Below are positions 3,991 through 18,897 of a stretch of 64,000 bases of DNA, one piece after another. A program made the translations under genes and the position numbers. Origin of the DNA: Candidatus Hadarchaeota archaeon. GTDB lineage: Archaea > CAYQAE01 > CAYVLA01. The notes below the pieces were generated by a model, which worked only from the letters and a program-made list of their open reading frames with translations, was not told the DNA's origin and did not search any database. The first letter of the stretch is position 1; the number at the start of each line of letters is the position of its first letter. The stretch covers positions 64,001 through 128,000 of the forward strand of contig CAZUNO010000002.1 in NCBI GenBank assembly GCA_964621445.1. Reading direction: 5' to 3'.

Positions 3991-4587
3991 GTGAAGATAA
4001 TGCTTAAGATAGAGAGGCAAAGGGAGACGAAGGAGACGGATGTATCCATTACCATGGATTTTGATGGATCCGGAAAATCCTCGATAAGTACCGGACTACC
4101 CTTCTTCGACCACATGTTAACCTCCATGGCCAGACATGGAAGGATAGACACCGAGATAGATGTTGAGGGGGATCTTGATGTAGACGACCATCACGTTACC
4201 GAGGACGTGGGAATAGTTCTCGGCGAGGTGATCCTGCAGGCCCAAAAGGAAAGACCCTCGATCCGACGCTTTGGGAGCGCCATAATACCCATGGATGATG
4301 CGCTTATACTCATGGCCATTGACCTTGGGGGCCGGACCTACGTGGATCTAAAGGTCGACTTCAAGAAGGAGTATGTCGGAAGCTTCGTCCTGGATAACAT
4401 CAAGCACTTCATGAGATCGATGGCCGATACCGCCTACATGAATCTCCATGCACACAAGTTATCGGGCAGCGACGATCACCACCTGGCGGAGGCACTATTC
4501 AAGAGCCTGGGAATAAGCCTCTCCCAAGCCCTGAAAAAGGATCCCTCACTCTCCGGAGAGATTCCCAGCACCAAGGGCAGGATCTAG
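3991..4587 (+). CDS. hisB: Imidazoleglycerol-phosphate dehydratase
   Basis: RETKET, FFDHML, DDHHVTED, DDHHLAEALFK, PSTKG. Confidence 0.96.
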   Translation: MKIMLKIERQRETKETDVSITMDFDGSGKSSISTGLPFFDHMLTSMARHGRIDTEIDVEGDLDVDDHHVTEDVGIVLGEVILQAQKERPSIRRFGSAIIPMDDALILMAIDLGGRTYVDLKVDFKKEYVGSFVLDNIKHFMRSMADTAYMNLHAHKLSGSDDHHLAEALFKSLGISLSQALKKDPSLSGEIPSTKGRI

Positions 4588-5249
4588 GACGCTTCATTTC
4601 TTAGGGCTTTTAGGATAAGGAAAATGGCCACCCTTATCCCGCACCACACGGTAACCCCCCGCACGTACTTTTCATACTTTACCGGTACCTCCTTTACCCG
4701 TAGACCCTTGCGCCTCGCCTCGTACAGCAGCTCCGACTCTATCTCGTACTGGTTGGCGGTTAGGTCCATTCCTTCAAGAGCCGAGGCTCGTATGGCCTTC
4801 AACCCGCTCTGGCTATCCCTGACTGGGTTTCGAGTAATCGCATTGGTCAGCTTGGTAAGTCCCCAGTTCCCGATCCTCATGATAAGGGGCGCCGAATCGA
4901 AATAATTGACCCGGTTTCCCAGAACTATGTCCGCCTCGTCATTGAGGATGGGCTCCACCAGGTTGGGGATGTCACTCGGGTAGTGCTCGCCATCACCGTC
5001 AAGCCTTAGAATGATCTCGGCGTCGTATTCCTCCGCTTTCTCCAGCCCTTTCCTGTATGCTGATCCAACTCCCTGGTTCCTATCGATCTTGAACACCTTA
5101 GCCCCTCCCGCAGTCGCCTCCTGGGAGGATAGATCGGTGCTCCCATCATCGATCACTATAACGTTGTCCACATACTTTGAGGCCTCACGGGCTATTTCCT
5201 GAATGGTTTTCTCCTCGTTGTGGACCGGGATCACGCAAATGGTCTTCAA
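4584..5249 (-). CDS. GT2 glycosyltransferase, polyprenol/dolichol-phosphate sugar synthase-like (DPM1/ArnC-like, soluble)
   Basis: VIPVHNEE, DDGSTD, NQGVG, LDGDGEH, DSQSGLKA, YEIESE motifs. Confidence 0.85.
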   Translation of the reverse strand: MKTICVIPVHNEEKTIQEIAREASKYVDNVIVIDDGSTDLSSQEATAGGAKVFKIDRNQGVGSAYRKGLEKAEEYDAEIILRLDGDGEHYPSDIPNLVEPILNDEADIVLGNRVNYFDSAPLIMRIGNWGLTKLTNAITRNPVRDSQSGLKAIRASALEGMDLTANQYEIESELLYEARRKGLRVKEVPVKYEKYVRGVTVWCGIRVAIFLILKALRNEAS

Positions 5250-5297
5250 GTATAATCCCTTACCGTTTGGCTTGAAAGATATCCCGAAAATGCCACC

Positions 5298-5999
5298 TCA
5301 TTTTCTACTCCAGGCAGCGTCTGGTCCCTCATCCACTATCTTTCCATCAACTATGACCAAACCTCTCTTGCAATGCTTAAGAAAGTTGGGATCATGGCTT
5401 ACCGTGATAATGGTTACCCCCAGGTCCTCGTTTACCCTTCCCAGCAGCTCGTAAACCCTTTCCGATGACCTCGAGTCCAGATTTCCGGTCGGCTCGTCCG
5501 CCAGAAGTATTTTTGGATTATTCGCCAGTGCCCGGGCTATGGCAATTCTCTGTTGTTCCCCACCGGATAGCTGATCAGGCTTATTTAAAGCCCTCTGCTT
5601 GAGCCCGATCAACCCAAGCAATTCGCTGGATCTACTGCTCCTGGACTGGCTATCCTTACCTGATAGGACCATGGGGAATTCGATGTTTTCAACCGCGGTT
5701 AGGGTTGGTATGAGATTATATGACTGGAATACAAATCCAATGGTGTGCAGTCTAAGATCCGATAACTCGTCATCGGAAAGCTGTGAGGTATCGCGTCCGA
5801 ATATCTCTACCAGTCCCGAATTTGGTCTATCCAGACAACCCAAAACGTTCAGAAGGGTCGTTTTTCCGGACCCGGAAGGGCCGGAGACTAACACGAAATC
5901 AGCTTCATCTACACTCAAGCTTACTTCTAGGAGCGCTTCCACCTCGATTTCGCCCGCTTTGTAGATTTTTCGCACTTTACGAGTCTCTACTGCCTTCAA
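5298..5999 (-). CDS. ABC transporter ATP-binding subunit, LolD/MacB family
   Basis: GPSGSGKTT, IGFVFQSYNLIP, LSGGEQQRIAIARAL, ADEPTGNLD. Confidence 0.93.
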   Translation of the reverse strand: MKAVETRKVRKIYKAGEIEVEALLEVSLSVDEADFVLVSGPSGSGKTTLLNVLGCLDRPNSGLVEIFGRDTSQLSDDELSDLRLHTIGFVFQSYNLIPTLTAVENIEFPMVLSGKDSQSRSSRSSELLGLIGLKQRALNKPDQLSGGEQQRIAIARALANNPKILLADEPTGNLDSRSSERVYELLGRVNEDLGVTIITVSHDPNFLKHCKRGLVIVDGKIVDEGPDAAWSRK

Positions 6000-6055
6000 T
6001 TTGGCCCCTCAGGGAGCTGGGAAACCCTTTAAAAGTATTCTGATAAATATTCCCC
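6000..6055. promoter_or_regulatory. Short divergent promoter region between the ABC ATPase/GT2 unit and the permease operon
   Basis: 56-bp intergenic stretch between head-to-head genes, with a TATA-like TTTAAAA at about 6028-6034. Confidence 0.45.
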
Positions 6056-7207
6056 ATGGCCGAGGCCCAATCGATCTGGAAGATGGCCTTTAGGAACCTC
6101 TCGAATCAGAACAAGACCACTATACTAACAGTGGCGGCCATAGCAGTCTGTGTGATGACCTTTGTCTCCATCTTCTCAATCCTCGACGGCCTCCAGTTGT
6201 CCGTTGAGAAGGTAATTAGAGGCTTCTACGGGGAGGAAGGTAGAAGTGCATATGTACTTCCCGCTTCGGATGAAATCGAACAGGGACTTATACCCCGTGC
6301 GGTGGCCGAGGAATATAGAGGACTTGATGATGTATACGGCCTTTCCGAGGAGGATGTGGTGAATTCTTACTACCAGGGAAGAGAGGTGGACCTTCTCGGA
6401 GTTAATCTGGATGACCTTGACGCCACCCACGGATTCCAGGGAATTGATGGCAGGAGCATGGAGAAGGGACCGGAATGCATGGTGGGCTCCACGGCCGCCG
6501 AAATACTTGGCATAGATGTCGACCAAGAGATATCATTGGAACTGGATGACAGCACCGTCGACCTTTTGGTTACGGGAATATACGAGGCCAAGACGTCCCT
6601 CAATGCGAATATCCTGGTGAATAACGAATTCCTTTCCTCCAGAATTCCCCGGTTTAAGGTCAATACCTCCATGCTGCGTATTAAGCTCAAGACGGGAAAC
6701 CTGGAATCGGTAGCCGAATTCACCGAGGAAAACCACCCCGAACTCAGAATCAAGGAATCTGTTCAGGTGAGCAAGTTCTTCCAGAAATCCATCATAAACA
6801 TCTCCCGCCTTCTCAGCACCATCATTATTTTCGTTATACTGCTGATGGTCCTTGGTATATACAATTCAATGAACATGGTGGTTTCGGAGCGAAAAAGGGA
6901 AATTGGGATAATAAGGGCTATGGGAGCCAGGAGGTCCTTCATAGTCAAACTGTTCATGGCCGAAAGTACTATGCTTTCACTTCTAGGGGGCTTATTCGGG
7001 GTCGGGTTGGGAATAGCCATGTCGCATGGAATCACATCGATCTTTTCCATCTTCGTTGCCGGTTCCTCATCTGTCGCTCCCCTCACCAAGCTCACCACCA
7101 TTGGCTGGGCCATGTTTGCCTCCCTGTCGATAGGGCTAATTGGAGGAATTTCCCCGGCAAGTAATGCCTCCAAGGTGGAAATCTCAAGAGCCCTCACGGA
7201 GGTGTGA
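6056..7207 (+). CDS. ABC permease, MacB/LolCE/FtsX family
   Basis: N-terminal TM (MAFRNL...), extracytoplasmic core, C-terminal 3 TM with ERKREIGIIRAMGA. Confidence 0.9.
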   Translation: MAEAQSIWKMAFRNLSNQNKTTILTVAAIAVCVMTFVSIFSILDGLQLSVEKVIRGFYGEEGRSAYVLPASDEIEQGLIPRAVAEEYRGLDDVYGLSEEDVVNSYYQGREVDLLGVNLDDLDATHGFQGIDGRSMEKGPECMVGSTAAEILGIDVDQEISLELDDSTVDLLVTGIYEAKTSLNANILVNNEFLSSRIPRFKVNTSMLRIKLKTGNLESVAEFTEENHPELRIKESVQVSKFFQKSIINISRLLSTIIIFVILLMVLGIYNSMNMVVSERKREIGIIRAMGARRSFIVKLFMAESTMLSLLGGLFGVGLGIAMSHGITSIFSIFVAGSSSVAPLTKLTTIGWAMFASLSIGLIGGISPASNASKVEISRALTEV

Positions 7208-10200
7208 ACATAGAGAGCCGTCTTCTCCATGCCATGAAGATATTTCCTCGTCACAGAATGTGGCTATCCTTAGCCGGGATAATGGTATGCGCCATTCTCT
7301 TCTTCGGGGTGCTCTCCGTGGTTCACTGGCTTAGCTATTCCTCAACCTCCTACTTCGGAGAGCAAGAGGGCATATACGTACTGGCGCAGGAGGAGGCGGC
7401 CACCGTCAAACAATCACAAGTTCCCCTCGCCCTGGCTCCGGCACTAACCAGGATGAATGGAATCCAGGTGGTTTGCCCCGAACTCTTCATATATGGGGTG
7501 TTAAATGATAAGGCTGTCATAATCCGTGGGATATTCCCATCGGATTTCCAATCACTTGAACCGGTCACCCTGATTCAAGGGCGGTGGCTCAGGGACGACG
7601 ATATCAAGGCCGCCGTGGCTGGCCAGAATCTAGCCCGAAAACTGGATCTGAAGGTGAACGATACCTACCTGCTTTCAGGATCCGAGGTTGATGACTTCGT
7701 CAGGATCAGGATCGTGGGCATCTTCAAGGGAGGGGGAATGATTGATGACGACCTACTCATGAACATACACTACGCCAGGTATCTCCAACAGGAAACACAA
7801 CCCGGTTATGCCTCAATAATCCGGGCCAAGGTCAACACCACCATCTGGCCCAGCGTAGAAAGCATCTGGCAATCGGTCAGCGGACTTCCCAATATAACGC
7901 CGCTCCAATATGAACCAACTGCTCCCAACAACACCCAGAGACTGCATTTCACCTGCAATGCCACAGCTCATACCGAAGTGGGCTCGGTCATACTCTACTA
8001 CAAAAAGCAGGGTCTCCATCGCACAATCCAAAAGACCATGATAAAGGGAAATTCAAGTCAGTTTAGGACCCAGATCGGCCCTGTGAAGGACTCCTCATGG
8101 GTACTTTGTTGGGCCAACGCCACTGATATTTTGGGCCACGATCGACGGACGCCTGAGGTTAACATCTCAATAACAGATGCCCTGGGACCGGACATATTCG
8201 ATCTGACAATTGAACCGCCCCCGCCCCAGACAAAGGATCACCTGGTAAACGTCTCCTTCAAGGTATTCGATACAAGCGAAATGGTCAGGAACGTAACCGT
8301 CCACACATATAATGTTGGACTTAATCGTACATTCCACGGAAAGGACTCCACGGGGCGGGCTTACGAGCTAACCCTGGGAAGGTTTGAACCGGGACCATTG
8401 ACCCTTTGGATATCCGCCCGGGATAGATTCGGCAATCTGGCACGAACGGCTCGATACAGGTACAGGATCCTCAATAGGACCGATCAATCCCCTCCCGAAA
8501 TAGGTGAGATGGTATTCGAGCCTGACCCCCCGAATGACAACTCCACCCTGACCGTGAACGTTCCAATGTTCGATGACTCAGAGATCGTTACCGCCGACCT
8601 TATCTATGACTATCAGGTCAAGGGCATTCACTACAATGGGACCCTTAAGATGAATAGAAGCCAGGCCCAGGAGGGCCTTTGGGAAGCGGTAACCGGTTCC
8701 TTTCCGGGTGCCACAACGATTCATTTCAGGATATTCGCCAGGGACCAATTCGGGAACGCCGTATACTCGGAGACCAGGGATGTATTCGTGAGATACTCGG
8801 AGCCACCGGAGGAGCTCCAGGTCTACAGATTCCCCCAATATTCCACTCCCGGCCTCAATAATCTGGTATTCGCCGTTCTCTACGACGCGGCGGAGATCCA
8901 GGAGGTCAACTTCACCTTCGTGGAAGCGGGTAGATGGACCAACCTCTCCATACCCGTGGGGATAACTACCTTTAGGGAACCCTTTCTCCTGGGGCGCCTA
9001 TCAACCGGGTTCAAGGAATATAATCTCTCCATGGAGGACAGGCGGGAAGAGGTGACCAGATATCCAGGACAGGGACTGGAAGGGTTCCTTGTTCAGCGAA
9101 AAAGACCCCACATAGAGGATATACAGTATTCCTCGACTGTAAGGAAGGGCTTTCCCCTAATGGTGACCTTCAGGGCAGTCGGCGTCTTCCCACTAAGCGA
9201 GGTATATACCACCGACTCCAGAGGGGTAGTGGAAAAATGCGAAAGGATTGAGGGTGAATATACCGCGATCCTGGGTCCATACTCCAAGCCGGGTGACTAC
9301 TCCTTCAGTATAACTACCCAGGACTGGGCGGGCAATACACGGACCATTGAAGACCGGGAATTCACCGTAGAGGAGGAATCGATAACCGATATCGACTTCA
9401 CGCCAAAACCGCCCATTCTGGGAGAGGAGCTAACCGTGACCTGTAGGGTGATCGGGGACTCTCCCCGCAAGAAGGTCCGGCTCATAGCACCTGTGGGCGG
9501 CAAGTACGTGTTGACTCCAATGGAATTGGAGGAGGGGAGGAGATTCGCGTCCATACCCATCGATAGCCCTGGTATTCTACCCTTCTCGGTACAGGTCGAG
9601 GATGGAGAGGATCTGATACGCTCAAAAACCGTACGGCTTAACGTCGGTTCCAACCACTCATCATTGTACCTGGCTCACAGCCCACCCCATCCTCTGAGTA
9701 CCCAGAATATAACAATCTCCATCTTTGCCAGGTCGGGTCATAACCTGAAATCGCTGGAACTGGAATGGAAAAATGGATCCCACGAGATTCCACATCGCAA
9801 GGTCTGGAGGCTAGAGGGGACGGAAACGAGATTAGACTTCAAACCGGGAAGGCAAATAGAGGGGACCCTTCTTTACAGGGCAATTCTTACCACTGAAATG
9901 GGTAGCCTTACCTATCCCCTGACGGAGGACGAGTGGCTCGGGATCTCCATCACCAAAAACCTGTTTACCCCCCCGGAAATTGGAAGATTATCCCTATCCC
10001 CCCAGACTTACGTGGGACTGGATGGGAACAGGGGACAGGATTTCCTTGTTGAGGTCGGTTGCCCAATTTCCTTTGACCAGGGTATATCCTCGGTTGAGAT
10101 AGATTACGTGGTAGACCAGAGAACCTATAACGAGCCACTCCTACCGGTTTCCCGGAAATACGGGCTCTCCTCAAGGTTTTATTCAGCCTATCTCGGTCCC

Positions 10201-13200
10201 TTCCCCACCAACGAGACCATAAGTTGTCAGGTCACTGCCAGAAGCATCTCGGGATTGGAATCCTCCACCCCGGAGGTGAGCTATGTCCTCCGGGATACGG
10301 AACCTCCGGAGATACAGGATATATATCACGACCCCCTACACCCTGAACCCAAAAAGGAAATAACCATTGGGTGCGAGGTAACCGATGACTCGGGTGTCAA
10401 GGACGTTTTGCTGCTGTACGGCGGCAATGGCACCCAAAATGCAGAGCGCATGATGCGGTACGGAAATACCTACACTCTGGACCTTCTCTCCCCGCCCGCG
10501 GGCGAATCCCTCACCTATGCAATACAGGCCACGGATAACTACGGCAACAGCAACCAGTCCTTGCCGGGTACCGTTACCTCTAGGGACGAAACCCCACCCG
10601 ATATATGGGAGGTCACCCATGACCCGCTGGAACCAACGGATAATGACAGCGTCAACATAACCGTCCGACTCATCGATCGGCAGGATGAAATCGAAAACGT
10701 GACCCTACTCTGGTACCAGTACACCTGGAAGAACCAGACCAAGAAGGGGGGCAGCGGGTACATTACCAGGGTATTCCAGATCGATGCCTCTGAGTTTGAC
10801 CCGGGAATGAACGTACGGTACAAGATCGAGGCCTTTGACCGTTCGGGAAACAAGGCGGTCTACCCCAACGTAGAGCAGGGAGAAACGCCTCCTTCTCCAC
10901 TTCTCTATGGCGATAATCCTAATTCCCTGAGACAGGAAGCATGGGAACCCTATCTCACCTTCCGGGTTGTCGACAGATCCCCTCCCGTTCTCACCCTTGA
11001 TGCCCAGCCCGAAAGTCCAAATGAACTTGAAACCGTTACCTTCGAGGTGTCAGCGGAGGACAATCACCTTCTCAGGAACTACACGCTTCACCTATGGGTG
11101 TCAGGGGTTTACAGGCCTTTCAGCGAGCAGGTAGGTCGTCCTAGCTTCAGGGACGAGTTCTCCTCCGGTCCCCTAGAACCGGCATCCACCATAGTTTGCT
11201 ATCTTGAGGCATACGACAGGTCCGGTAATTATGCCCGGTTTCCGGCTCGCTCCAACCTTACCATAGATGTGGAGAGGTTCGAATGGGGAGGCGAGATGGC
11301 CGCCGTCGATCCCAGGGTTGACCTTGAAGTCGCCGGCCCGGCCGGTTTTTCTCAGGGAATGGCCAGACAGGGAGCGGGAAAGATAATCGCCAGCATAAAT
11401 GGCATCCTTTTCATGACCTTTCTGGCCACCGTGGCCGGCATCGGCAATATAGTCTACACCTCGGTTTTCAAATCGAAGAGGGAAATAGGCCTGGTCCGAA
11501 CATTAGGGGGGAGCAAGAAATTCGTCACCCTTCTGGTGGCCTCGGTTACCGTCCTGCTGGGCCTGACCGCTGCCTTGATCGGGTGTGTAATTGCCTACCT
11601 GCTGATAACGGTGTTTTCTAACCTAGGAGCCTCCCTTGCCTGGGTCACCTTGAAGCCCACATTCAATATCCTTATTCTGGCAGCGACTTCAGCGGCCGCG
11701 GTGACCATTAGCCTCTTCGGTGGAATGGTAGCCCTTACCAGGCTTTTTTCATATACCCCTGTGGAATCGATAAGGACGGTGACCGCGCCCCAAGCGAAGA
11801 GGGAGCATCCAACCTACATCGAGAATACAAGGCGTTTCCCCGCAAAGACCATCGCCGTTTTACTCCTCATCACCATTAGTGCCGCTGCCATGATGCGCCT
11901 ATATCCTACATATATCTCCGAGCAGCCCTTCGATCCCGATTCCTGGTTGCACCTAACCGCTGCATCCGATATGCGGGAGACCGGCCATCTGAGACTCGAT
12001 TACGCTTCCCGGGAAATGCAGGCGGTCAGCGCCCTCCCTGGCCTCAACATCCTGCTGGTCGTATCCCAGGTATTGACCGGGAGCGAGATGATCCCAGCGA
12101 GGATCATAACCCCCATCATATCATCACTTGGCTTGATCCTGGCCTTTGTACTGGCCAGGAAACTCTCCAGGAGCGATATCGTGGCAGGAATGACCGCGAT
12201 CATACTGGCAGTGGTTGGCTTTTATGCCAACCGAACGGCAGCGCTTACCAAGGAGGCCCTCGCACTCCAGATGCTCCTACTCTGCCTCTACATGTTATAC
12301 CTAAGCCACATCTCCAGAAGCACCAAGCACAAGACTCTGCTAGTTGCCATTTCCGTTGCCCTGATGCTGACCCATCACCTAACGGCCATCTATTTCATGC
12401 TGATTTTTGTGGGATACATCTTTCTGAGAATCTTCCACAAGTATTCCCAGGGTGTCATCGACCCCCTGGAGGTCAAGCAGGATGCCCTAACCGGTCTTGG
12501 GGTCCTAACCAGCTATCTTATCATCAGCTTCACCCTGGGCAAGTACGAAACTCCGATACCATTCCAGGACTCCCTTCTGATAATATCCCTGTTCTTCGTG
12601 ACCATCGGATTCGGAAGAATTTTGCTTTCGTCATCATTCTTGGGCCAGCACCGGAGATCTATATCCCTGGTCGCAGCCCTGGGTACGGTTACCTTCCCCT
12701 TCATCGCCTACCGCGCCGGGCTCTTCTCCTACGCACCATGGGAACAGGTCCTCCCCATGATAGCCCCCCACTTGTCCCTTCTGGCCATAGCGATCCTGGC
12801 CCTGTTCCCGGTCTCCCTGCTCTCAGAAAATCGAAAGTCCTTCATCTTGGCCTGGGCCTCTGCCGTGATTCCCTTCCTATTATTTGGACTTGTCAAAAGG
12901 GATATCTTCGGCTACATACTGCTCTTCAGGAACATCTCATACGGTTATCAACTATCGGCCATATTGGTAGGCATCGCCTTCGTCTATGCCTACAAGCGTT
13001 TCGAGGCCGGAGGTCAGGATGGAATCCGCACCGGGCTGGTTGCCATAGCCGCGGTGCTCCTCATGACCAACCTTCTATTCGCCTCCCACATGGGTTTTCT
13101 GTCCCGCCCTTATGAGAAGAAGGACCTATACACGACCACGGAGTTCAACGCGGCCTTGAAGGTGAACCAATCAACCCTAAGAGGTCAGCTGGTAGGGTCG

Positions 13201-13500
13201 GACGAACGTGGTCGCCGGCTTCTATTGTACGTAACTGGGGAGGATGGAGACCAGATCACGACCTACGTCTATATGATCAGGATGGAAAAATGGTTAATAA
13301 ACAGGCTTAACGAACAGGTCAACTTGACCGAGAAGCCGCTGACCCATATCCTCACCTATGACGAGATGTTTGAGGTCGGTTTCGTGGATCAGGTACTGTT
13401 CAAGGATGTGGAAAGGCTAGAGCTCAATCGATATGAGGACGTCATTCTGGACAACGGCGGTGAACACCTCATTTACGTGGCCAGGAAGGAATGGCCGTAG
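7204..13500 (+). CDS. Giant 2098-aa fusion: MacB-type ABC permease with about 11 Ig-like repeats and a C-terminal GT-C-like multi-pass membrane domain
   Basis: TM1 plus MacB core (IIRGI, QGRWL, RIVGIF); about 100-aa repeats starting D.xPPxI..xP..P and often ending AxDxxGN; FtsX motif KSKREIGLVRTLGG at about aa 1425; then PFDPDSWLH...GH, roughly ten TMs, HHLT and a soluble C-terminal domain. Confidence 0.85.
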   Translation: MNIESRLLHAMKIFPRHRMWLSLAGIMVCAILFFGVLSVVHWLSYSSTSYFGEQEGIYVLAQEEAATVKQSQVPLALAPALTRMNGIQVVCPELFIYGVLNDKAVIIRGIFPSDFQSLEPVTLIQGRWLRDDDIKAAVAGQNLARKLDLKVNDTYLLSGSEVDDFVRIRIVGIFKGGGMIDDDLLMNIHYARYLQQETQPGYASIIRAKVNTTIWPSVESIWQSVSGLPNITPLQYEPTAPNNTQRLHFTCNATAHTEVGSVILYYKKQGLHRTIQKTMIKGNSSQFRTQIGPVKDSSWVLCWANATDILGHDRRTPEVNISITDALGPDIFDLTIEPPPPQTKDHLVNVSFKVFDTSEMVRNVTVHTYNVGLNRTFHGKDSTGRAYELTLGRFEPGPLTLWISARDRFGNLARTARYRYRILNRTDQSPPEIGEMVFEPDPPNDNSTLTVNVPMFDDSEIVTADLIYDYQVKGIHYNGTLKMNRSQAQEGLWEAVTGSFPGATTIHFRIFARDQFGNAVYSETRDVFVRYSEPPEELQVYRFPQYSTPGLNNLVFAVLYDAAEIQEVNFTFVEAGRWTNLSIPVGITTFREPFLLGRLSTGFKEYNLSMEDRREEVTRYPGQGLEGFLVQRKRPHIEDIQYSSTVRKGFPLMVTFRAVGVFPLSEVYTTDSRGVVEKCERIEGEYTAILGPYSKPGDYSFSITTQDWAGNTRTIEDREFTVEEESITDIDFTPKPPILGEELTVTCRVIGDSPRKKVRLIAPVGGKYVLTPMELEEGRRFASIPIDSPGILPFSVQVEDGEDLIRSKTVRLNVGSNHSSLYLAHSPPHPLSTQNITISIFARSGHNLKSLELEWKNGSHEIPHRKVWRLEGTETRLDFKPGRQIEGTLLYRAILTTEMGSLTYPLTEDEWLGISITKNLFTPPEIGRLSLSPQTYVGLDGNRGQDFLVEVGCPISFDQGISSVEIDYVVDQRTYNEPLLPVSRKYGLSSRFYSAYLGPFPTNETISCQVTARSISGLESSTPEVSYVLRDTEPPEIQDIYHDPLHPEPKKEITIGCEVTDDSGVKDVLLLYGGNGTQNAERMMRYGNTYTLDLLSPPAGESLTYAIQATDNYGNSNQSLPGTVTSRDETPPDIWEVTHDPLEPTDNDSVNITVRLIDRQDEIENVTLLWYQYTWKNQTKKGGSGYITRVFQIDASEFDPGMNVRYKIEAFDRSGNKAVYPNVEQGETPPSPLLYGDNPNSLRQEAWEPYLTFRVVDRSPPVLTLDAQPESPNELETVTFEVSAEDNHLLRNYTLHLWVSGVYRPFSEQVGRPSFRDEFSSGPLEPASTIVCYLEAYDRSGNYARFPARSNLTIDVERFEWGGEMAAVDPRVDLEVAGPAGFSQGMARQGAGKIIASINGILFMTFLATVAGIGNIVYTSVFKSKREIGLVRTLGGSKKFVTLLVASVTVLLGLTAALIGCVIAYLLITVFSNLGASLAWVTLKPTFNILILAATSAAAVTISLFGGMVALTRLFSYTPVESIRTVTAPQAKREHPTYIENTRRFPAKTIAVLLLITISAAAMMRLYPTYISEQPFDPDSWLHLTAASDMRETGHLRLDYASREMQAVSALPGLNILLVVSQVLTGSEMIPARIITPIISSLGLILAFVLARKLSRSDIVAGMTAIILAVVGFYANRTAALTKEALALQMLLLCLYMLYLSHISRSTKHKTLLVAISVALMLTHHLTAIYFMLIFVGYIFLRIFHKYSQGVIDPLEVKQDALTGLGVLTSYLIISFTLGKYETPIPFQDSLLIISLFFVTIGFGRILLSSSFLGQHRRSISLVAALGTVTFPFIAYRAGLFSYAPWEQVLPMIAPHLSLLAIAILALFPVSLLSENRKSFILAWASAVIPFLLFGLVKRDIFGYILLFRNISYGYQLSAILVGIAFVYAYKRFEAGGQDGIRTGLVAIAAVLLMTNLLFASHMGFLSRPYEKKDLYTTTEFNAALKVNQSTLRGQLVGSDERGRRLLLYVTGEDGDQITTYVYMIRMEKWLINRLNEQVNLTEKPLTHILTYDEMFEVGFVDQVLFKDVERLELNRYEDVILDNGGEHLIYVARKEWP

Positions 13501-14310
13501 GTGCTTGTCTTGGAGAGATCTTTGGCCATCAGAGTAGACATCGACACCATCAAGGGGCTCTTGGATGGGGTCCCCATTCTACTGGACATGTTCGACGACC
13601 TGGGAATCCAGGCCACGTTTTTCGGCTGTGTGGGGCCGGATAAGACCTCGAGAAGTTTCCTGCAAGCTCCGCGAATCGCCAGGCATGTTTCCGTAAATCC
13701 CCTGAAAAAATTCGGGCTCCGTGAAATCATGGGTTCCATTAAAGGCCTTGATTTCCGCAAGCATGACGGGGAACTGAGGGAGATCCAGGAAAGGGGCCAC
13801 GAACTACAGCTCCACGCCTTCGATCATCTGGATTGGATAAAAAGGGTGGAGAACCTTGACCTATCGGGGACCAGGTCACTTATCGAGAGGGGCATACGTA
13901 GCTTTGAGGCAATCACCGGCAGGAAACCCCGGGGTTTCGCATGTCCAGCCTTCAGGGTTACGGAGAATGTCCTGCTGGCTGAACAGGAGCTGGGATTCGA
14001 CTATGCAAGCGATTATCATGATCTTCTGAGGACTGTTCCCTTCAAGCCGCAGGAATCATCGGTTCTACAGATACCGGTGAACGCTCCTCTGATAGAAGAT
14101 ATGGTAGCAAAGGGTTTGAGCGATGCGCAAATACTATCCAGGCTCAAAAACATTGTAGATCAAACCCCGCTGACCGTGTTTTATCTACATCCCTGCTATG
14201 AGCCTCGGCTAAAAGGGGACCTACTGAGGGATTTCATAGAACAGGCCCTGGAAAAGGCCCGTCATGTGAAATTTTGGGAGGTGTGGAAAAGCTGGAGTCA
14301 TTGCGCATAG
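13501..14310 (+). CDS. ArnD-like polysaccharide deacetylase/deformylase (CE4/NodB superfamily)
   Basis: LAIRVDIDT..G...GVP.LL....GIQATFF..VGPD N-terminus resembles ArnD; HELQLHAFDH, GFACPAF, DYASD. Confidence 0.82.
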   Translation: MLVLERSLAIRVDIDTIKGLLDGVPILLDMFDDLGIQATFFGCVGPDKTSRSFLQAPRIARHVSVNPLKKFGLREIMGSIKGLDFRKHDGELREIQERGHELQLHAFDHLDWIKRVENLDLSGTRSLIERGIRSFEAITGRKPRGFACPAFRVTENVLLAEQELGFDYASDYHDLLRTVPFKPQESSVLQIPVNAPLIEDMVAKGLSDAQILSRLKNIVDQTPLTVFYLHPCYEPRLKGDLLRDFIEQALEKARHVKFWEVWKSWSHCA

Positions 14311-15464
14311 TGATGATCTACGAGCTGGGACCTAAGGACGACGGTTCATTTCTCGGTGGCATAGAGTCCCACATACTGGGTCTTGCCAAGGAGCTAGCTC
14401 ATGACCATCAGGTAACCATTCTAACCGGCGCCATACCGGGGGAGAGAGATAAAACTGATCTCGATGGGCTGAATGTCATTAGATCCGATATCATGGGAAT
14501 GGTTTCTCGATCCTGGAACCCCACCAACCTTACAACGAGGCGACAGATCTTCTCCACCCCCGCCTTTCTAAGGACGGGAATCGACCTGGATGCCGACATT
14601 TACCACGGACATATTTACACCTCGGGGATTTCAGCTCTGGGCCTGGCATCGCTTGGTTCCGGTGGTTCGGTTAACACCATACACGGGTCCTACTATGACC
14701 ACTGGGAATCAATTACCAACTCGAGCCTCAAACCCCATGCCTACAGAGTGGCCGAGAGATTATTGGCAACGTTCCTAGCTCGCAATTGCGATAGACAGAT
14801 ACACACGGCAACCGATTTCGCGGTTAAGGTCAGGCAGTGGGGGGCACCGCAAGAAAAGGTCCAGGTAATACTCAACGGGGTTGATACCGATAGATTCTCA
14901 CCTCAGGTAAATCCCCGCGAACAATCGGACATACCAATAGTGATGACGGTTCGTCGGTTGGTACCCAAGAACGGGGTCCACCATTTCATCCAGGCCTGCA
15001 GCCATTTGGAGAGGGAATCTAGATTCGTTATAGTTGGCGATGGTCCTTCCAGACCGGGTCTAGAGTCGCTGGCGAGGAGGATAGGGGTGGACGACCGGGT
15101 TGAATTCCGTGGCGCAATTCCCAACAACCAGATGCCAGGAATCATCGCCGGTGCCGACGTGTTAGTTATCCCCAGTTTGGTCGAGGCCTCCAGCATATCC
15201 CTATTGGAGGCAATGGCCATGGCAAAGCCAACGGTGGTCACCAACATACCGGGCATCGACGAGGTAGCAAGTCCGGAGAGAAGCATCATGGTTCCACCCG
15301 GGAACCCCGAGGCCATCGCAACGGGCATTGATCACCTTCTATCCGATAGGAAGAAAGCGAGGGAACTTGGAAGAAAAGGACGAGAATACGTGGTCGCTAA
15401 TCGATCCATCAAGAAGATGACGGAGAAAACAATGATCATCTACCGCCAGGCACTCGAGTCCTAG
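14301..15464 (+). CDS. GT4 family glycosyltransferase
   Basis: GGIESH, NGVDTDRF, RRLVPKNG, VGDGP, PSLVEASSISLLEAMA; probable TTG start at 14301 (ORF track starts 14274). Confidence 0.9.
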   Translation: MRIVMIYELGPKDDGSFLGGIESHILGLAKELAHDHQVTILTGAIPGERDKTDLDGLNVIRSDIMGMVSRSWNPTNLTTRRQIFSTPAFLRTGIDLDADIYHGHIYTSGISALGLASLGSGGSVNTIHGSYYDHWESITNSSLKPHAYRVAERLLATFLARNCDRQIHTATDFAVKVRQWGAPQEKVQVILNGVDTDRFSPQVNPREQSDIPIVMTVRRLVPKNGVHHFIQACSHLERESRFVIVGDGPSRPGLESLARRIGVDDRVEFRGAIPNNQMPGIIAGADVLVIPSLVEASSISLLEAMAMAKPTVVTNIPGIDEVASPERSIMVPPGNPEAIATGIDHLLSDRKKARELGRKGREYVVANRSIKKMTEKTMIIYRQALES

Positions 15465-15838
15465 ACCCTGGACAGCAGGATCAAGGCCAGTATACCACAC
15501 CCGATCCCTGCCGCTATCCTCAGATCTACCTCCTCGCCCAGCAATACAACGCATAGAACCGCGAACAGGACGTTTCCCAGGACAATAACCAGGTTCAAGC
15601 CCAGTACGGCAGGTACATCGTTTGACAGGAAAGCCAGATCCACCGCCAAAACCACCAGGCCCATCAGAAGAACAAGGTAGACATATGGATTTCTAGCCAG
15701 GGAGAAAAGAAAGGATGGGCTCAGGACCTGGGATAGCGAGGTTTCGTCGAGCTTATCCGCTGCAACCTTGTGAAAAAAGAGATTAAGACCACTAAGCACT
15801 CCAGCAACTATGGCGAATAATAGGATCTTACCCTGCAA
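15461..15838 (-). CDS. Small 4-TM EamA/SMR-type membrane protein, ArnE/ArnF-like putative lipid-linked sugar flippase
   Basis: 125 aa, four hydrophobic segments, LLGEEV...IAAGI ending typical of the DMT superfamily. Confidence 0.65.
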   Translation of the reverse strand: MQGKILLFAIVAGVLSGLNLFFHKVAADKLDETSLSQVLSPSFLFSLARNPYVYLVLLMGLVVLAVDLAFLSNDVPAVLGLNLVIVLGNVLFAVLCVVLLGEEVDLRIAAGIGCGILALILLSRV

Positions 15839-15840
15839 GT

Positions 15841-16656
15841 TTAGCCCCCCGAGGCTTCAGCCGCCCTCTCCTGGCTGGACTCCACCCTCCTAAACACGAA
15901 GAACCAGAAAACGAAGATCCAACCTATAAAGAACACGAAACCAAAATAGTCATGGAAGGTCTTCATGGCCTCAAACCCTATATAATAGGTTATGAGAGAA
16001 AGAACCACTATCCTCACTATATTGGCCGAGTAGGTCCCGGCCGCCCCCACAAGGAAGTAAACGCTACCCATCTTCTTGTCCATCCTATCCCTGAGATCAA
16101 CCAGCATCATGGCGAAGAAAGCCAGGAACAGGAAGGAGGAATGGATCCCCGAACAGGCCTCAGTAACCAGAAGGGTCACCGGCCGAGAGTGGTCGGGGGC
16201 TGAAAGAACTATCTCGTTTCCTGCTCCCGAAAAGGGAATACCCATCATGCTCAGCACCGCCCTGGAAAAATACATCACGTTTCCAAGCCAGGCCCTGCCG
16301 AAAGAGGTCTCCAGTATGTACTTATCGAATCCAATGGTTATCAAGAAATAAAAAACCAGAACCGGGGTAACGAAGAAGTAAAGCAAAGTCCGATAACGTA
16401 GCAGAAAATCGTACTCCCGCGACAGATAGCGATAGGCCAGGAACAAGGAACCGATCCCCACAAAAACCAAGCCGGACGCAACAGCCAGATCAGAGGAACG
16501 AACACGCTGGAAAAGGACGTATGAAACAAGCGCAAAAGCCAGGTACCCATAACCGAGGATCGAAACCTGAGAGAACGACACATTCTCCTTTATGGCGGAG
16601 ACCGGCCTCATAGAGATGAAGGACAGCGTATATCTAATAAATGGCTTGCGAATCAC
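15841..16656 (-). CDS. Archaeosortase/exosortase family transpeptidase
   Basis: Multi-TM; catalytic motif VTEACSGIHS, ANIVRIV (Arg), FHDYFG (His). Confidence 0.9.
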   Translation of the reverse strand: MIRKPFIRYTLSFISMRPVSAIKENVSFSQVSILGYGYLAFALVSYVLFQRVRSSDLAVASGLVFVGIGSLFLAYRYLSREYDFLLRYRTLLYFFVTPVLVFYFLITIGFDKYILETSFGRAWLGNVMYFSRAVLSMMGIPFSGAGNEIVLSAPDHSRPVTLLVTEACSGIHSSFLFLAFFAMMLVDLRDRMDKKMGSVYFLVGAAGTYSANIVRIVVLSLITYYIGFEAMKTFHDYFGFVFFIGWIFVFWFFVFRRVESSQERAAEASGG

Positions 16657-16662
16657 TTTGGT

Positions 16663-17520
16663 TTATAAATCCAACCAGGGCCGGAGTAGAAATGTGCAAA
16701 ACAGCAGACAGCCAAGAGGAATTGCTATCACTATTACCAGGGGCAGGTCTCTCTGGGGCAGGGTACCTGCCTTGATTATCTTGATCGCTTCTGGGTCAGT
16801 AACCCCCTTCTCCTGCATTTTTTCTAGCAAAGCGGTGAGTTGCCAATAGTACGAGGTGAAACTCACAAATGCCGTAAACTCGCTCTCGACCCCTTCTGGA
16901 GGGCTATCCAGCTTGACCGCTTCCCGGTAAGCATCTCTAATGGCCATTGCCTTCTCCCGGTTTTTGCCTATCACGGTTTCATAACTGGGATAATCAAACA
17001 CCGTATTCCCCACCACCATGTACGAATCGCCCTGGATAACTATGGTTTTGCTAGGCATGAAATTGTATTGAGAACCAGAAACTGCAGATCTCACACCCAC
17101 CAGGCAGAGCATCACTATTGAGAAATATACCAGATCACGCCAGGCCGCATTCCAGCCCTTTCTCGAGGGGCACCTAAGGTAGATCAAGGCGATGACGCAC
17201 ACTAATAGTGCCAAAGCAGAAACGGTCACCGGGGGGTCCAGCAGGCCATTGCCGAGGCGGAACTTCTGGCCCAAGAGGTTCAGAACATCGTGGAAAAAAA
17301 ATAGATTGAGCAACGGCCCGGTGTCCAATTTCCCGTCTCCGTAAAGCCGAGTTATTTGTGGAAATACCGCCAGGGACCCCAGTGTGGACACGACTACTGC
17401 CACTCGGTAGGAACTGATCTCGGGGTTATCCTCCTCCCTCCTCTTTGGAATAGAAATTCCAAAGATGATCAAGCAACACCCCACGATCGCGCCGAAAAAG
17501 AAATGCGCGAGAGGATTCAT
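16663..17520 (-). CDS. Membrane protein of unknown function (N-terminus resembles membrane-bound metal-dependent hydrolases)
   Basis: MNPLAHFFFG start, several TMs, FFFHD motif, about 100-aa soluble loop, C-terminal TM; 6 bp upstream of the archaeosortase gene. Confidence 0.6.
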   Translation of the reverse strand: MNPLAHFFFGAIVGCCLIIFGISIPKRREEDNPEISSYRVAVVVSTLGSLAVFPQITRLYGDGKLDTGPLLNLFFFHDVLNLLGQKFRLGNGLLDPPVTVSALALLVCVIALIYLRCPSRKGWNAAWRDLVYFSIVMLCLVGVRSAVSGSQYNFMPSKTIVIQGDSYMVVGNTVFDYPSYETVIGKNREKAMAIRDAYREAVKLDSPPEGVESEFTAFVSFTSYYWQLTALLEKMQEKGVTDPEAIKIIKAGTLPQRDLPLVIVIAIPLGCLLFCTFLLRPWLDL

Positions 17521-17640
17521 TGAAATGAAGCAGCCGACTGGGCTGATTAATATTTCACCGGCATTAAATCAAAGGTAATAGCTTCAAATCCACGGGCTCT
17601 CGATACATTTAAGAGATAAATCGAGCCCCGTTTGCCTGGG

Positions 17641-18897
17641 ATGGGCCGCAAGAAAATAATCATTCTAGGTATGGGTAGGATAGGGCTACCCACTGCTGCA
17701 TGTCTAGCCAACGCTGGTCACCAGGTACTTGGAGTCGATATAGATCAACGAAAGGTTGCCGATATCCGCGAGGGGAGGATAGATGGCAAGGAACCTGGAT
17801 TATCCGAAATGGTACTATCGGCCATGGAGTCGGGGACCCTCCGCATTTCAACGGAGCCGGTCCGGGGCGACGTATTCCTGCTTTGCCTGCCCACCCTGCT
17901 CAAGGAGGATAGGACATGTGATCTATCGGCCATTTCCTCCGCGATGGACTCCATATCAAATGTCATCTCGCCGGGCAATCTGATTATCCTGGAATCCACC
18001 GTGCCGGTACATACCACCCGGGATTTCCTGATACCTGGGCTGGAAAAGAGAGGAGTGGACACCTGTAAGGTGCTCTTCGCTTATGCCCCGGAGAGAATAA
18101 TGTCGGGAAGAATGCTGGAAGAGATAAGGAAGGATGACCGGATAATCGGTGTCACAAGTGAAAAGGCTGCAAAACTAGCCAGAGAGGTGTACGAGAGCTT
18201 CGTTGAGGGGGACATTTTCATTACCGATACCTCCACGGCCGAATTGGTGAAGCTCGCGGAAAACACCTACAGAGACATAAACATAGCTTACGCCAACGAG
18301 GTCGCCCTCTTCTGTCAGCGGGAAGGGATCGATGCCCGACGTGCAATAGAGCTGGCCAATAGGCATCCCCGGGTTGAGATACATCGCCCAGGACCCGGAG
18401 TTGGAGGCCACTGCATACCCGTGGTCCCTCATTTCCTGGCCCAGAATAATAGCTACGATATGATGATAAAAGCGGCGAGAAAAGTAAACGAATCCATGCC
18501 GAGATATATAGCCAACATGATAACCAGGACCATAAGCGGAGCGGAGCAACCAAAGGTCTCCCTTATGGGCATGGCCTATAAGTCCGGCTCAGGGGACACC
18601 GTAAACAGCCCGGGATTACAGATTCTGGAGCATCTCCAGGGTGAGAGGATGGAAATTCTCCTATGCGACCCACTTGTAAGAAACCAGGAAATGGACCTTG
18701 TGGAAATGGAGGAGGCCCTTTCATCGGACTGCATCGTCTTTCTAGTCGCCCATCAGCAATTCAAGGAAATTGATCCACCCAAACCCAAGAAGGCCATGGC
18801 GACCGTCATAGATACCGCAAACTGCATAGAGCCGCGGAAATGGATCCGGCAAGGCTGGAAAATTAAACGTTTCGCATCCAAGAATCCTAAGGCTTAA
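17641..18897 (+). CDS. wecC: Nucleotide-sugar dehydrogenase, UDP-N-acetyl-D-mannosamine dehydrogenase (WecC)-like
   Basis: GMGRIGLP, LESTVP, APERI, KLAENTYRDINIA, PGPGVGGHCIP. Confidence 0.8.
   Translation: MGRKKIIILGMGRIGLPTAACLANAGHQVLGVDIDQRKVADIREGRIDGKEPGLSEMVLSAMESGTLRISTEPVRGDVFLLCLPTLLKEDRTCDLSAISSAMDSISNVISPGNLIILESTVPVHTTRDFLIPGLEKRGVDTCKVLFAYAPERIMSGRMLEEIRKDDRIIGVTSEKAAKLAREVYESFVEGDIFITDTSTAELVKLAENTYRDINIAYANEVALFCQREGIDARRAIELANRHPRVEIHRPGPGVGGHCIPVVPHFLAQNNSYDMMIKAARKVNESMPRYIANMITRTISGAEQPKVSLMGMAYKSGSGDTVNSPGLQILEHLQGERMEILLCDPLVRNQEMDLVEMEEALSSDCIVFLVAHQQFKEIDPPKPKKAMATVIDTANCIEPRKWIRQGWKIKRFASKNPKA

Follow-up and report, generated by a model that had tools for sequence, protein, structure and literature searches.

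An archaeal island with an archaeosortase, an ArnD-like de-N-acylase and a GT4 glycosyltransferase, and with a MacB-type permease fused to an oligosaccharyltransferase-like domain

DNA of a Candidatus Hadarchaeota archaeon contains an island of ten genes in which an archaeosortase is encoded close to an ArnD-like de-N-acylase and a GT4 glycosyltransferase, and these three genes are neighbours in three phylum-level groups of archaea. The island fills positions 4584–18897 of the window, by which we mean the whole stretch of 64,000 nucleotides analysed here (positions 64001–128000 of contig CAZUNO010000002.1, labelled C2; assembly GCA_964621445.1, labelled G000, 3.2 Mb in 89 contigs). Other genes of the island encode a MacB-type ATP-binding cassette (ABC) transporter, one permease of which continues into a domain with the GT-C fold of oligosaccharyltransferases (OSTs). 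We consider it probable that the sortase, the deacylase and the GT4 enzyme are functionally linked. More tentatively, we read the block as a cell-surface maturation island of two separable modules: module A, with a LolD/MacB-like ATPase, two MacB/FtsX permeases and the OST-like GT-C domain, and module B, with the ArnD-like de-N-acylase, the GT4 enzyme and the archaeosortase. Family calls for the ten proteins come from Pfam and NCBIfam hidden Markov models (HMMs), mostly at E ≤ 0.01 and judged against curated cut-offs.

The sortase, de-N-acylase and GT4 cassette in archaea

Module B consists of three genes, the third on the opposite strand:
13501–14310, plus strand: CE4 de-N-acylase, ArnD-like and cytoplasmic; 269 aa, PF01522 45.2 bits (cut-off 23.1)
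14274–15464, plus strand: GT4 glycosyltransferase; 396 aa, cytoplasmic, PF00534 115.4 bits
15841–16656, minus strand: exosortase/archaeosortase-family transpeptidase, nearest to ArtC; likely start Met16, at position 16611

The sortase passes both family cut-offs, with 63.4 bits for PF09721 (cut-off 25.7) and 57 bits for TIGR04178 (cut-off 23). HMM subfamily assignment of the sortase and the deacylase had been proposed as a check in the initial annotation, which was made from the window's letters; it placed the sortase in the exosortase family and left it below the cut-off of its best subfamily match, ArtC (TIGR03762, 60.5 bits against 100). The catalytic residues are those of the family: C153, in the motif EACSGI, is found in nine of ten aligned sequences, and R200 and H220 are invariant. 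The tenth, a homologue in genome G005 (L092, 3566–4396), has Ser at the catalytic Cys position (APSSGI, compared with xxCSGI in the other nine). Orthologues in the database start at Met16. A word-indexed database returned close orthologues only (17 proteins, at least 66% identity), and in a quick, preliminary tree the four sequences of the window's family group together, separated from the others by very long branches.

The deacylase is ArnD-like, again below the subfamily cut-off: it matches the ArnD model NF011923 with 102.1 bits (E 3e-29; cut-off 382), and residues 9–258 align with profile positions 4–259 of 294. Its hydropathy profile contains no signal peptide, transmembrane (TM) helix or other hydrophobic segment. 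Given this and the end-to-end alignment with ArnD, the enzyme is expected to act before export on the cytoplasmic face, as ArnD does, and its substrate should be a lipid-linked or activated N-acyl amino sugar. The best NCBIfam matches of the GT4 enzyme, all below cut-off, are the XrtA-system glycosyltransferase model TIGR03088 (113.2 bits), EpsE (105.8) and BshA (84.3). GT4 orthologues with 40–42% identity adjoin a deacylase gene in G235, G245 and G005.

A pattern scan over one genome per prokaryotic species, made with an alignment of the sortase clade, returned 23 loci: three from the window's own family, 17 from Heimdallarchaeota, and one each from Thorarchaeota, an ‘uncultured archaeon’ and Candidatus Hydrothermarchaeum profundi. 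The loci of G235 and G245 are taken as two of the 23 and counted once, and neighbouring genes were detected by local phmmer searches with the window proteins. An ArnD-like gene lies within 4 kb of the sortase gene in 16 of the 20 loci from outside the family, and in 14 of these 20 an orthologous GT4 gene (E 1e-80 to 1e-96) stands beside it. Of the four loci that have no ArnD-like gene, three (L110, L117 and L122) break off within 2 kb on the downstream side of the sortase. The cassette has been rearranged between groups: the Hydrothermarchaeota-type order is deacylase, GT4, sortase on one strand; in the Heimdallarchaeota type the sortase gene is followed, on the other strand, by a GT4 gene (GT4′), the deacylase gene and a second GT4 gene; and in the window the deacylase and GT4 genes are followed by two convergent genes, for a small membrane protein and the sortase.

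Co-conservation had been named at the outset as the test of the island, and it divides the genes in two. The sortase, ArnD-like and GT4 genes are kept together in three phylum-level groups, whereas the ABC, GT-C, GT2, small membrane protein and WecC-like genes of the island accompany the sortase in the family only. Homologues of the MacB permeases, the dolichyl-phosphate (Dol-P)-type GT2, the small protein and the 285-aa membrane protein occur in just the three family loci of the 23; the last two have none in the non-family sortase cassettes, and WecC-like genes are found in the family loci and in L112, at 5–9 kb from the sortase. Both the sortase and the ArnD-like gene are absent from the sole other genome of the same class.

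The surroundings of the cassette differ between groups. The extended synteny in Heimdallarchaeota comprises a Ribophorin I homologue, an E1-like enzyme, an acetyltransferase, the sortase, GT4′, the deacylase, GT4, a GT2 and a pyridoxal-phosphate (PLP) decarboxylase. At L091 (G245; 810–2942 and neighbouring genes), the Ribophorin I homologue scores 50.8 bits for PF04597, the E1 is ThiF/MoeB-like and the acetyltransferase NeuD-like; the PLP decarboxylase matches an ‘exosortase A system-associated’ model with 153.6 bits, below its cut-off. At L083 (G235; 7267–8693), the genes immediately upstream of the ArnD-like, GT4 and sortase genes encode two proteases, a FlaK-like prepilin peptidase and an intramembrane protease of the CPBP (myxosortase-like) type; the sortase is followed by a protein of 137 aa that has a TM helix at either terminus and RR as its last residues.

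Possible clients of the sortase were sought among the six-frame ORFs (open reading frames) of the genome, 176 of 9777 of which end in a TM helix and a basic tail. Sixteen of the 176 carry [IVLMT][PS]E just before the helix, compared with 2–12 for permuted or substituted control motifs. The candidate sorting signal can be summarised as [IVL]-x-E, a TM helix and a basic C terminus in about 16 secreted proteins, among them one that is pectate-lyase-like, several that are glycosidase-like and others that carry ‘choice-of-anchor X’ or OmpL47-type domains. The client tails are conserved in orthologues and paralogues of related genomes as part of a longer module, GNYGPAR..YPL.L...[IVL]xE-TM-basic. 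A search for the long tail ‘GNYGPAR..YPLRL..IxE’ matched G000 five times (twice in a training sequence) and G245 once, weakly, and did not match G004, G005 or G235; the long tail is confined to the family and makes no link between phyla. In G005, the deacylase and GT4 genes are followed two genes later by the gene of a secreted 177-aa protein ending in VPEF, a TM helix and RQKGRYR; the sortase homologue of G005 is on another contig, beside GT2, GT4 and GT-C genes.

The signal of ArtC is PEF-CTERM. Curated CTERM models gave no match at E ≤ 1 to 20 candidate clients other than insignificant ones to VPDSG and Heimdall-CTERM, and the Heimdall-CTERM model has no match in G000 or G001 and seven sub-threshold matches in G245. 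The genome-wide motif scan that had been suggested for the island yielded a candidate motif, without a curated counterpart and with two possible cognate sortases. The second exosortase-family gene, unclassified, is on contig C19 of G000 (L019, 9252–10088, minus strand; TIGR04178, 33.6 bits), where it has as neighbours the genes of a large surface protein and of two hydrolases, one CehA/McbA-like and one CocE/NonD. G001–G003 have both sortases, and neither was found in G004. The island sortase is the more ArtC-like of the two; we tentatively assign the candidate signal to it rather than to its paralogue.

A MacB-type ABC transporter with an OST-like GT-C domain

Module A is encoded by three adjoining genes, the longest of which is given here as a whole and by its two parts:
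5298–5999, minus strand: ABC ATPase of the LolD/MacB/FtsE group; PF00005 108.6 bits
6056–7207, plus strand: MacB-type permease 1 (Perm1); 383 aa, with TM1, a periplasmic core domain and FtsX TM2–4
7204–13500, plus strand: giant protein (Giant), 2098 aa, whole gene; MacB_PCD aa 20–198, FtsX aa 1401–1518, C-terminal multi-TM domain
7204–11763, plus strand: Giant residues 1–1520, with TM1, MacB core, Ig-like array and FtsX TM2–4; MacB_PCD 49.6 bits, FtsX 35.9 bits
11794–13500, plus strand: Giant residues 1531–2098, OST-like GT-C domain and small C-terminal globular domain (AlphaFold2, Foldseek, VIA-align)

Both permeases carry MacB_PCD and FtsX domains above the Pfam cut-offs (43.9 and 62.9 bits in Perm1), and the ATPase is closest to LolD (228.9 bits, cut-off 307.75), MacB (226.8) and FtsE (209.5), as expected of a MacB-type ABC. 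All of these ATPase scores are below the equivalog cut-offs, and Perm1 scores 69.9 bits for lolCE (cut-off 362), so that LolCDE equivalog scores are not reached. The transporter resembles the type VII systems MacB, LolCDE and FtsEX in its LolD-like ATPase and its two different 4-TM permeases with periplasmic cores, in a LolC/LolE-like layout; it differs from them in the 1200-aa Ig-like insertion and the GT-C domain of one permease, and in having neither an outer membrane nor Lol partners.

The insertion is an extracellular Ig-like array of about 1200 residues (aa 199–1393), followed by FtsX TM2–4 (aa 1394–1520) and a basic linker. It has a weak match to Big_13 and, by blastp, no internal repeats at E ≤ 1e-3. 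Comparable permeases, of 1397–1411 aa, occur in G153 and G245. The array (window 7798–11382) contains 29 N-X-S/T sequons, or 2.43 per 100 aa compared with 0.43 genome-wide in ORFs of at least 120 aa, a 5.6-fold difference that suggests heavy N-glycosylation.

The C-terminal multi-TM domain of 568 aa has no Pfam match even at E ≤ 10. Its relatives number 325 at E ≤ 1e-3 in a profile search over 1.84 billion representatives and are mostly stand-alone proteins of about 520–560 aa; PMT_2 (PF13231) matched six of 35 scanned relatives below threshold (17.9–23.7 bits, cut-off 26.1), and no ArnT/PMT_2 (GT83/GT39-like) model matched the Giant domain itself. The fusion of MacB_PCD, FtsX and this domain also occurs, without the long array, in two shorter proteins, P0025 (1121 aa) and P0042 (817 aa). 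A word-based homologue search with the domain returned orthologue fragments alone, and a sequence-profile search of the PDB with an 85-sequence alignment returned no GT-C protein, the best matches being transporters (E 0.002).

Structure prediction gave a clear assignment. The AlphaFold2 model from the 85-sequence alignment has a pLDDT of 87.5 and a pTM of 0.91 (a model from a 7-sequence alignment, pLDDT 47, was discarded). In a Foldseek search of the PDB, the best 34 rows are all GT-C proteins, with STT3, AglB and PglB in the lead (E 6e-10 to 1e-6). With VIA-align, Z ranges from 12 to 29 over 20 GT-C entries: it is 29.4 for Archaeoglobus fulgidus AglB (root-mean-square deviation 4.0 over 437 residues), 26.9 for STT3B, 23.2 for PglB, 22.5 for ALG12, 19.7 for ArnT and 19.5 for Pmt. 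The last ~120 residues of Giant match the C-terminal globular domain of AglB-S2 (Z 8.6). The residues D49, K153, H194, H195, R379 and D470 (domain numbering) are near-invariant; D49 is part of FDPDSW, right after TM1 in the first extracytoplasmic loop, and is kept in at least 90% of the 85 sequences. The domain thus has a GT-C_A fold of 13-TM type, as AglB, STT3 and PglB do, together with the acidic residue of their first external loop and a C-terminal globular domain resembling that of AglB; it differs from them in lacking a PF02516 match (at E ≤ 10) and the WWDYG (WWD) motif, in its length, in its identity of about 13%, and in its fusion to FtsX. By its modelled fold, the C-terminal domain of Giant is an OST-like GT-C outside the STT3 family, which confirms the GT-C-like domain that the initial annotation had proposed for one of the permeases. 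Elsewhere in G000, two divergent canonical STT3/AglB genes adjoin each other on contig C32 (L066, L067), and contig C5 carries two further paralogues of Giant's GT-C family (L069, L070).

P0025, the shorter fused homologue, served as query against 401 archaeal genomes; of the matches listed, only those from the four family genomes, G329 and G153 cover the GT-C part. In G329 the GT-C-like gene lies 3′ of the ABC ATPase gene on the same strand, in one operon, beside two FtsX permease genes. In G153 it overlaps by 4 nt the end of the gene for a 1411-aa FtsX permease with an Ig-like insertion, and a short FtsX gene and an ATPase gene adjoin the pair; this arrangement is a split form of the Giant fusion. 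ATPase homologues with 42–44% identity stand beside FtsX permeases in G329, G153 and also G190. The module A loci of G329 and G153 contain no sortase, ArnD-like gene or Dol-P-type GT2, and of the 401 genomes, the 14 that have an ArnD-like match at E ≤ 1e-12 do not include these two. Given that ABC and GT-C genes recur together without sortase or deacylase, we conclude that the MacB-type ABC and the OST-like GT-C form a unit of their own. A LolCDE-like ABC that moves the sortase products, as originally suggested, has no comparative support, and a Lol-like trafficking role for the island transporter has none beyond family resemblance.

Two further observations concern these genomes. In G190 (L064, 4394–6225), a pair of PIG-L de-N-acetylase and GT4 genes lies about 5 kb from a MacB-type ABC, with SMC and RNase HII genes between them. 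In G329 (L060, 3409–4881), a MoxR-type AAA_3 ATPase gene contains an internal match to an intein-splicing domain.

The remaining genes and the island as a unit

Four genes complete the island:
4584–5249, minus strand: GT2, likely a polyprenyl (dolichyl)-phosphate sugar synthase; 221 aa, one C-terminal hydrophobic helix, PF00535 89.4 bits
15461–15838, minus strand: small 4-TM membrane protein (Small), candidate SMR/EamA-type flippase; 125 aa, four predicted TM helices
16663–17520, minus strand: membrane protein of no known family (Memb); 285 aa, sub-threshold Pfam matches only
17632–18897, plus strand: nucleotide-sugar 6-dehydrogenase of the UDP-N-acetyl-hexosamine type (WecC-like); three UDPG_MGDP_dh Pfam domains

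Gaps between neighbours range from −37 to +111 nt, in line with the ten contiguous, tightly spaced genes first described. From left to right, the GT2 and ATPase genes are on the minus strand, the Perm1, Giant, deacylase and GT4 genes on the plus strand, the Small, sortase and Memb genes on the minus strand and the WecC-like gene on the plus strand. Perm1 and Giant overlap by 4 nt and the deacylase and GT4 genes by 37 nt; the Giant and deacylase genes abut. The sortase operon begins with Memb and ends with Small, with 6 nt between Memb and sortase and 2 nt between sortase and Small; the initial annotation had reversed this order, placing the membrane protein between the small protein and the sortase. 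Nine of its ten family assignments hold; the tenth, ArnE/F-like for Small, does not go beyond size, topology and a feature-based lead, namely that the nearest ESM Atlas clusters (scores 0.94–0.95) contain 118–133-aa proteins with EamA or Multi_Drug_Res in 13–38% of members. Memb has orthologues in three related genomes, with 40–44% identity and many invariant residues.

The best NCBIfam matches of the GT2 are AglJ (120.5 bits), PpgS (92.2), Dol-P-hexose transferase (71.9) and ArnC (33.6), all below cut-off. The dehydrogenase passes TIGR03026 (368.7 bits, cut-off 189.8) and stays below the WecC cut-offs of PRK11064 (332.2 against 459) and of NF040825, the archaeal UDP-ManNAc dehydrogenase model (321.5 against 750); its presence means that the sugar of the cassette may be a hexosaminuronic acid. 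A WecB-like UDP-GlcNAc 2-epimerase gene (37028–38119, plus strand; PF02350, 326.7 bits) lies 18 kb from the WecC-like gene in the window and, as judged from its family, could supply UDP-ManNAc; ORFs of 397 aa and 243 aa that adjoin it have no family. At L103 (6961–9010), in a relative from the window's family, the membrane-protein and WecC-like genes are set apart by some 2 kb of additional sequence, which the window lacks.

The island is flanked by hisA/hisB on the left and, on the right, by a tRNA-splicing endonuclease gene and then RLI/ABCE1, convergent housekeeping genes. RadA, RPA and the endonuclease mark the genome as archaeal. Three genomes of the family keep the entire block in synteny (40–79% protein identity), and its flanks as well, so that block synteny alone is no proof of functional linkage. 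The genes might then be envelope genes that are neighbours by chance and have been inherited together in one family, a reading in keeping with the equally syntenic flanks and with the fact that most island genes are unlinked to the sortase elsewhere. We consider it very improbable, given that reading frames overlap or abut, that the triad persists in three phylum-level groups despite rearrangement, and that independent lineages have ABC and GT-C fused, split or in one operon.

The presence of all four Arn-type roles (GT2, ArnD-like enzyme, small 4-TM protein, GT-C) raises another explanation. In the ArnC/D/E/F/T, GtrABV, Lgm and PpgS/Rv3779 systems, as in the island, a polyprenyl-phosphate GT2 and a pre-flip de-N-acylase are combined with a small 4-TM flippase (here a candidate) and a GT-C that acts outside. 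Three-component GT2/flippase/GT-C systems are described as widespread (PMC11127046), and in G360 a GT2 homologue (31% identity) likewise adjoins an ArnD-like gene. The island would then add a cationic amino sugar to a lipid or surface glycan, as Arn and Lgm do to modify charge, with a MacB/Bce-like ABC that exports or senses antimicrobials and a sortase operon that is an unrelated neighbour. However, in other phyla the ArnD-like gene travels with sortase and GT4 and not with GT2 or GT-C, the candidate flippase gene is in the sortase operon, 2 nt from the sortase gene, and ABC and GT-C modules elsewhere lack an ArnD-like gene. In addition, no Arn equivalog cut-off is reached, and the GT-C domain is fused to an ABC permease and is OST-like, matching ArnT less well in structure than it does the OSTs (Z 19.7 compared with 29.4). 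We conclude that charge modification of this kind is an improbable function of the island.

A possible amine acceptor and its alternatives

The functional link that we consider probable within module B has three precedents. First, bacterial exosortases have an ‘unknown periplasmic nucleophile’ as their acceptor in the account of Haft 2006 (PMC1569441), where PF00534 and PF01522 are listed in the exosortase profile. Second, in Methanosarcina, pssA and pssD flank artA, PssA and PssD are needed for ArtA-dependent lipidation, and a lipid amine is the proposed nucleophile (PMC7157517). Third, cargo of type IX secretion (T9SS) is amide-linked to a deacetylated, aminoacylated sugar whose makers include a UDP-N-acetylhexosamine (UDP-HexNAc) dehydrogenase, the CE4 deacetylase VimE, the FemAB-like VimA and the GT4 VimF; the same linkage has been suggested for exosortases, citing loci with deacetylase, glycosyltransferases and EpsH (PMC7468200). 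Since the constant partners of the archaeal sortase are an amine-exposing enzyme and a GT4, matching these precedents, we favour a model in which the acceptor is an amine.

In this model, the GT4 enzyme would build, on the cytoplasmic face, a lipid-linked unit containing an N-acetyl-hexosamine, to which, in the window's family, the AglJ/PpgS-like GT2 and the WecC-like dehydrogenase would also contribute. The ArnD-like enzyme would strip the N-acyl group in the cytoplasm and expose a primary amine, and the small 4-TM protein would flip the amino-sugar product across the membrane. Outside, the sortase would cut secreted proteins at [IVL]-x-E ahead of the C-terminal TM helix, and the sugar amine would resolve the thioester on the sortase Cys, leaving the protein amide-linked to an amino-sugar glycoconjugate. 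Module A would be an ATP-driven, mechanotransmitting glycosyltransferase machine, its GT-C domain fused behind a glycosylated Ig-like stalk of 1200 aa, and would use a donor linked to polyprenyl phosphate outside the membrane, probably carrying the same amino sugar, and an extracellular acceptor. All substrates and the flippase role are what we infer from gene content. With only two cytoplasmic glycosyltransferases, and no Wzx, Wzy, polymerase or chain-length family among the ten proteins (Pfam, NCBIfam), the product should be a short unit and not a polymer. By analogy with the precedents, resolution of the thioester by the sugar amine is possible, though somewhat less likely than not. Rather doubtful is the general form, that the whole Heimdallarchaeota, Hydrothermarchaeota and Hadarchaeota-like sortase clade amide-links protein C termini to the amine of a lipid-linked glucosamine-type sugar made by the adjacent GT4 and ArnD-like enzymes.

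Several points weigh against the model. The L112 locus has full flanks and truly lacks the deacylase, and the 17 Heimdallarchaeota loci, with one extended synteny, count as one lineage. Linkage of GT2, ABC, GT-C, Small and WecC-like genes to the sortase in one family may be mere inheritance. Small has no Pfam or NCBIfam match at E ≤ 0.01, whether to ArnE/F or to any flippase, EamA appearing at E 0.22. The sorting motif is enriched only about 3-fold, with some controls reaching 10–12, and the second sortase has the same phyletic pattern, so that the signal cannot be assigned to the island sortase by profile. A GT-C in the island suggests that the lipid-linked sugar is a donor for transfer, not the final anchor. 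Finally, in Haft 2006 the bacterial gene trio is located in exopolysaccharide loci and the nucleophile is still unknown there (PMC1569441).

A glycan-only explanation is nearly as likely as the favoured model, and by itself likewise on the doubtful side. The OST-like GT-C would place a short amino-sugar glycan on surface proteins (the sortase clients, the Ig-like stalk) or on matrix; the sortase would anchor its clients elsewhere, for example to an ethanolamine lipid as for ArtA; and adjacency would reflect envelope co-regulation, as in PEP-CTERM/exopolysaccharide loci. It is consistent with the closeness of the GT-C fold to AglB, STT3 and PglB, with the AglB-like globular domain, with the 5.6-fold sequon enrichment of the stalk, and with an AglJ-like GT2 and a sugar dehydrogenase that mirror parts of the Agl pathway. 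The G235 cassette ends in an STT3-like gene (‘OST, archaeosortase A system-associated’, 84.8 bits, below cut-off), the sortases of G005, L115 and, weakly, G245 have GT-C genes no more than 10 kb away, and GT1-family and PF01522 genes appear as exopolysaccharide genes in the exosortase profile of Haft 2006 (PMC1569441). However, what stays with the sortase from phylum to phylum is the de-N-acylase and the GT4, not a GT-C; the genome already has two canonical STT3 genes; the GT-C domain has neither an STT3 Pfam match nor a WWD motif; and an amine-exposing enzyme as the constant neighbour of the sortase is left unexplained.

An alternative product is a cationic exopolysaccharide like Pel or poly-N-acetylglucosamine (PNAG), in which case the GT4 would polymerise HexNAc, the CE4 enzyme would partly deacetylate it, the ABC would export it and the sortase clients would be embedded in it. 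This is the classical reading of exosortase loci (PMC1569441). The GT4s match the PelF model with 47–69 bits (cut-off 100), and CE4 with GT4 is a combination typical of such loci. PelA and PgaB are periplasmic deacetylases, unlike the island deacylase, which is cytoplasmic; no polymerase, co-polymerase, Wzx/Wzy or chain-length family is found among the ten proteins; and MacB-type ABCs are not known as polysaccharide exporters. We therefore judge this product quite improbable, more so than the Arn-type function.

The favoured amine-acceptor model can be set beside the known systems part by part. Like bacterial PEP-CTERM/exosortase (EpsH/XrtA) systems, module B has a transpeptidase close to a GT4 (PF00534) and a CE4 enzyme (PF01522), with clients ending in motif, TM helix and basic residues; compared with the models of that system (TIGR03006, TIGR03087/03088/04063), the island GT4 has XrtA-system TIGR03088 as its best NCBIfam match. 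The island differs in being archaeal, in its ArnD-like cytoplasmic deacylase (TIGR03006 just 30.8 bits), in lacking polymerisation and export genes, the PEP motif and PrsK/R/T regulators, in its MacB-type ABC/GT-C fusion, and in that all subfamily models score below cut-off. With ArtA and PssA/PssD of Haloferax and Methanosarcina, it shares an archaeosortase near genes for an amine-bearing membrane compound, necessary there and proposed here, and the proposed mechanism of a thioester intermediate resolved by a lipid amine (PMC7157517); the sortase differs in being nearest to ArtC (below cut-off), PGF-CTERM is absent, and it is a sugar, the product of GT4 and CE4 enzymes, and not archaetidylethanolamine that would bear the amine. 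In the T9SS pathway of PorU and A-LPS (the Wbp/Vim proteins), roles match for WbpA and the WecC-like enzyme, VimE and the ArnD-like enzyme, VimF and GT4, and the transpeptidase and the sortase (PMC7468200), whereas the sortases are non-homologous and the island has no VimA/FemAB-like transferase, outer membrane or lipopolysaccharide. In two other genomes, FemAB-like/GNAT (Acetyltransf_6) genes adjoin ArnD-like genes (L089 in G020, 6098–7189; L087 in G138, 4560–5609), the same pairing as VimA and VimE of the T9SS linking-sugar pathway.

The initial annotation had likened the island to eukaryotic glycosylphosphatidylinositol (GPI) anchoring. The two share a logic, in which a lipid receives HexNAc from a GT4, the product is de-N-acetylated, and a transpeptidase-like enzyme puts the glycolipid in the place of a C-terminal TM signal, and the conserved link of sortase, deacylase and GT4 sustains that part of the comparison. 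No GPI-specific family is present, however: among the ten proteins there is no PIG-L (PF02585), PIGA domain (including in the GT4), PIG-K transamidase or ethanolamine-phosphate transferase (Pfam, E ≤ 0.01). In GPI the protein joins ethanolamine, not the glucosamine amine, and the Lol-like trafficking step that completed the comparison is without support.

The component families, the bacterial association of exosortase, GT4 and deacetylase, and the amine-acceptor idea (for ArtA and, speculatively, for exosortases) are already known. New are the archaeal cassette with an ArnD-like cytoplasmic deacylase in Heimdallarchaeota, a Hydrothermarchaeota record and the window's family; a candidate C-terminal signal; and the fusion of MacB permease, Ig stalk and OST-like GT-C, with its split relatives. 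In a limited literature collection, we found nothing combining an archaeosortase with MacB; of the matches listed for Heimdallarchaeota, Hadarchaeota or Asgard, those of one set do not mention an archaeosortase and those of another, with archaeosortase and Asgard together, are reviews or Haloferax studies by title and abstract start; those listed on GT-C or AglB do not mention FtsX or MacB, and we met no account of the combined MacB-type ABC and OST-like GT-C there.

The acceptor of exosortases and of most archaeosortases has been a question since 2006, and a cassette of three genes, for a sortase, a cytoplasmic de-N-acylase and a GT4, in three phylum-level groups of archaea offers a small, expressible system in which to identify it. 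The association of a MacB-type ABC with an OST-like GT-C, be it fused, split or co-operonic, suggests an ATP-coupled extracytoplasmic glycosyltransferase. That the cassette is present in Heimdallarchaeota, next to a Ribophorin I homologue, is relevant to how the surface-anchoring logic of eukaryotes arose. If the amine-acceptor model is true, the closest archaeal relatives of eukaryotes would have a prokaryotic protein–glycolipid anchor that follows the three-step logic of GPI (GT4, de-N-acetylase, transpeptidase), and in the window's family this anchor would be coupled to an ATP-powered MacB–GT-C machine that further processes or relocates the product.

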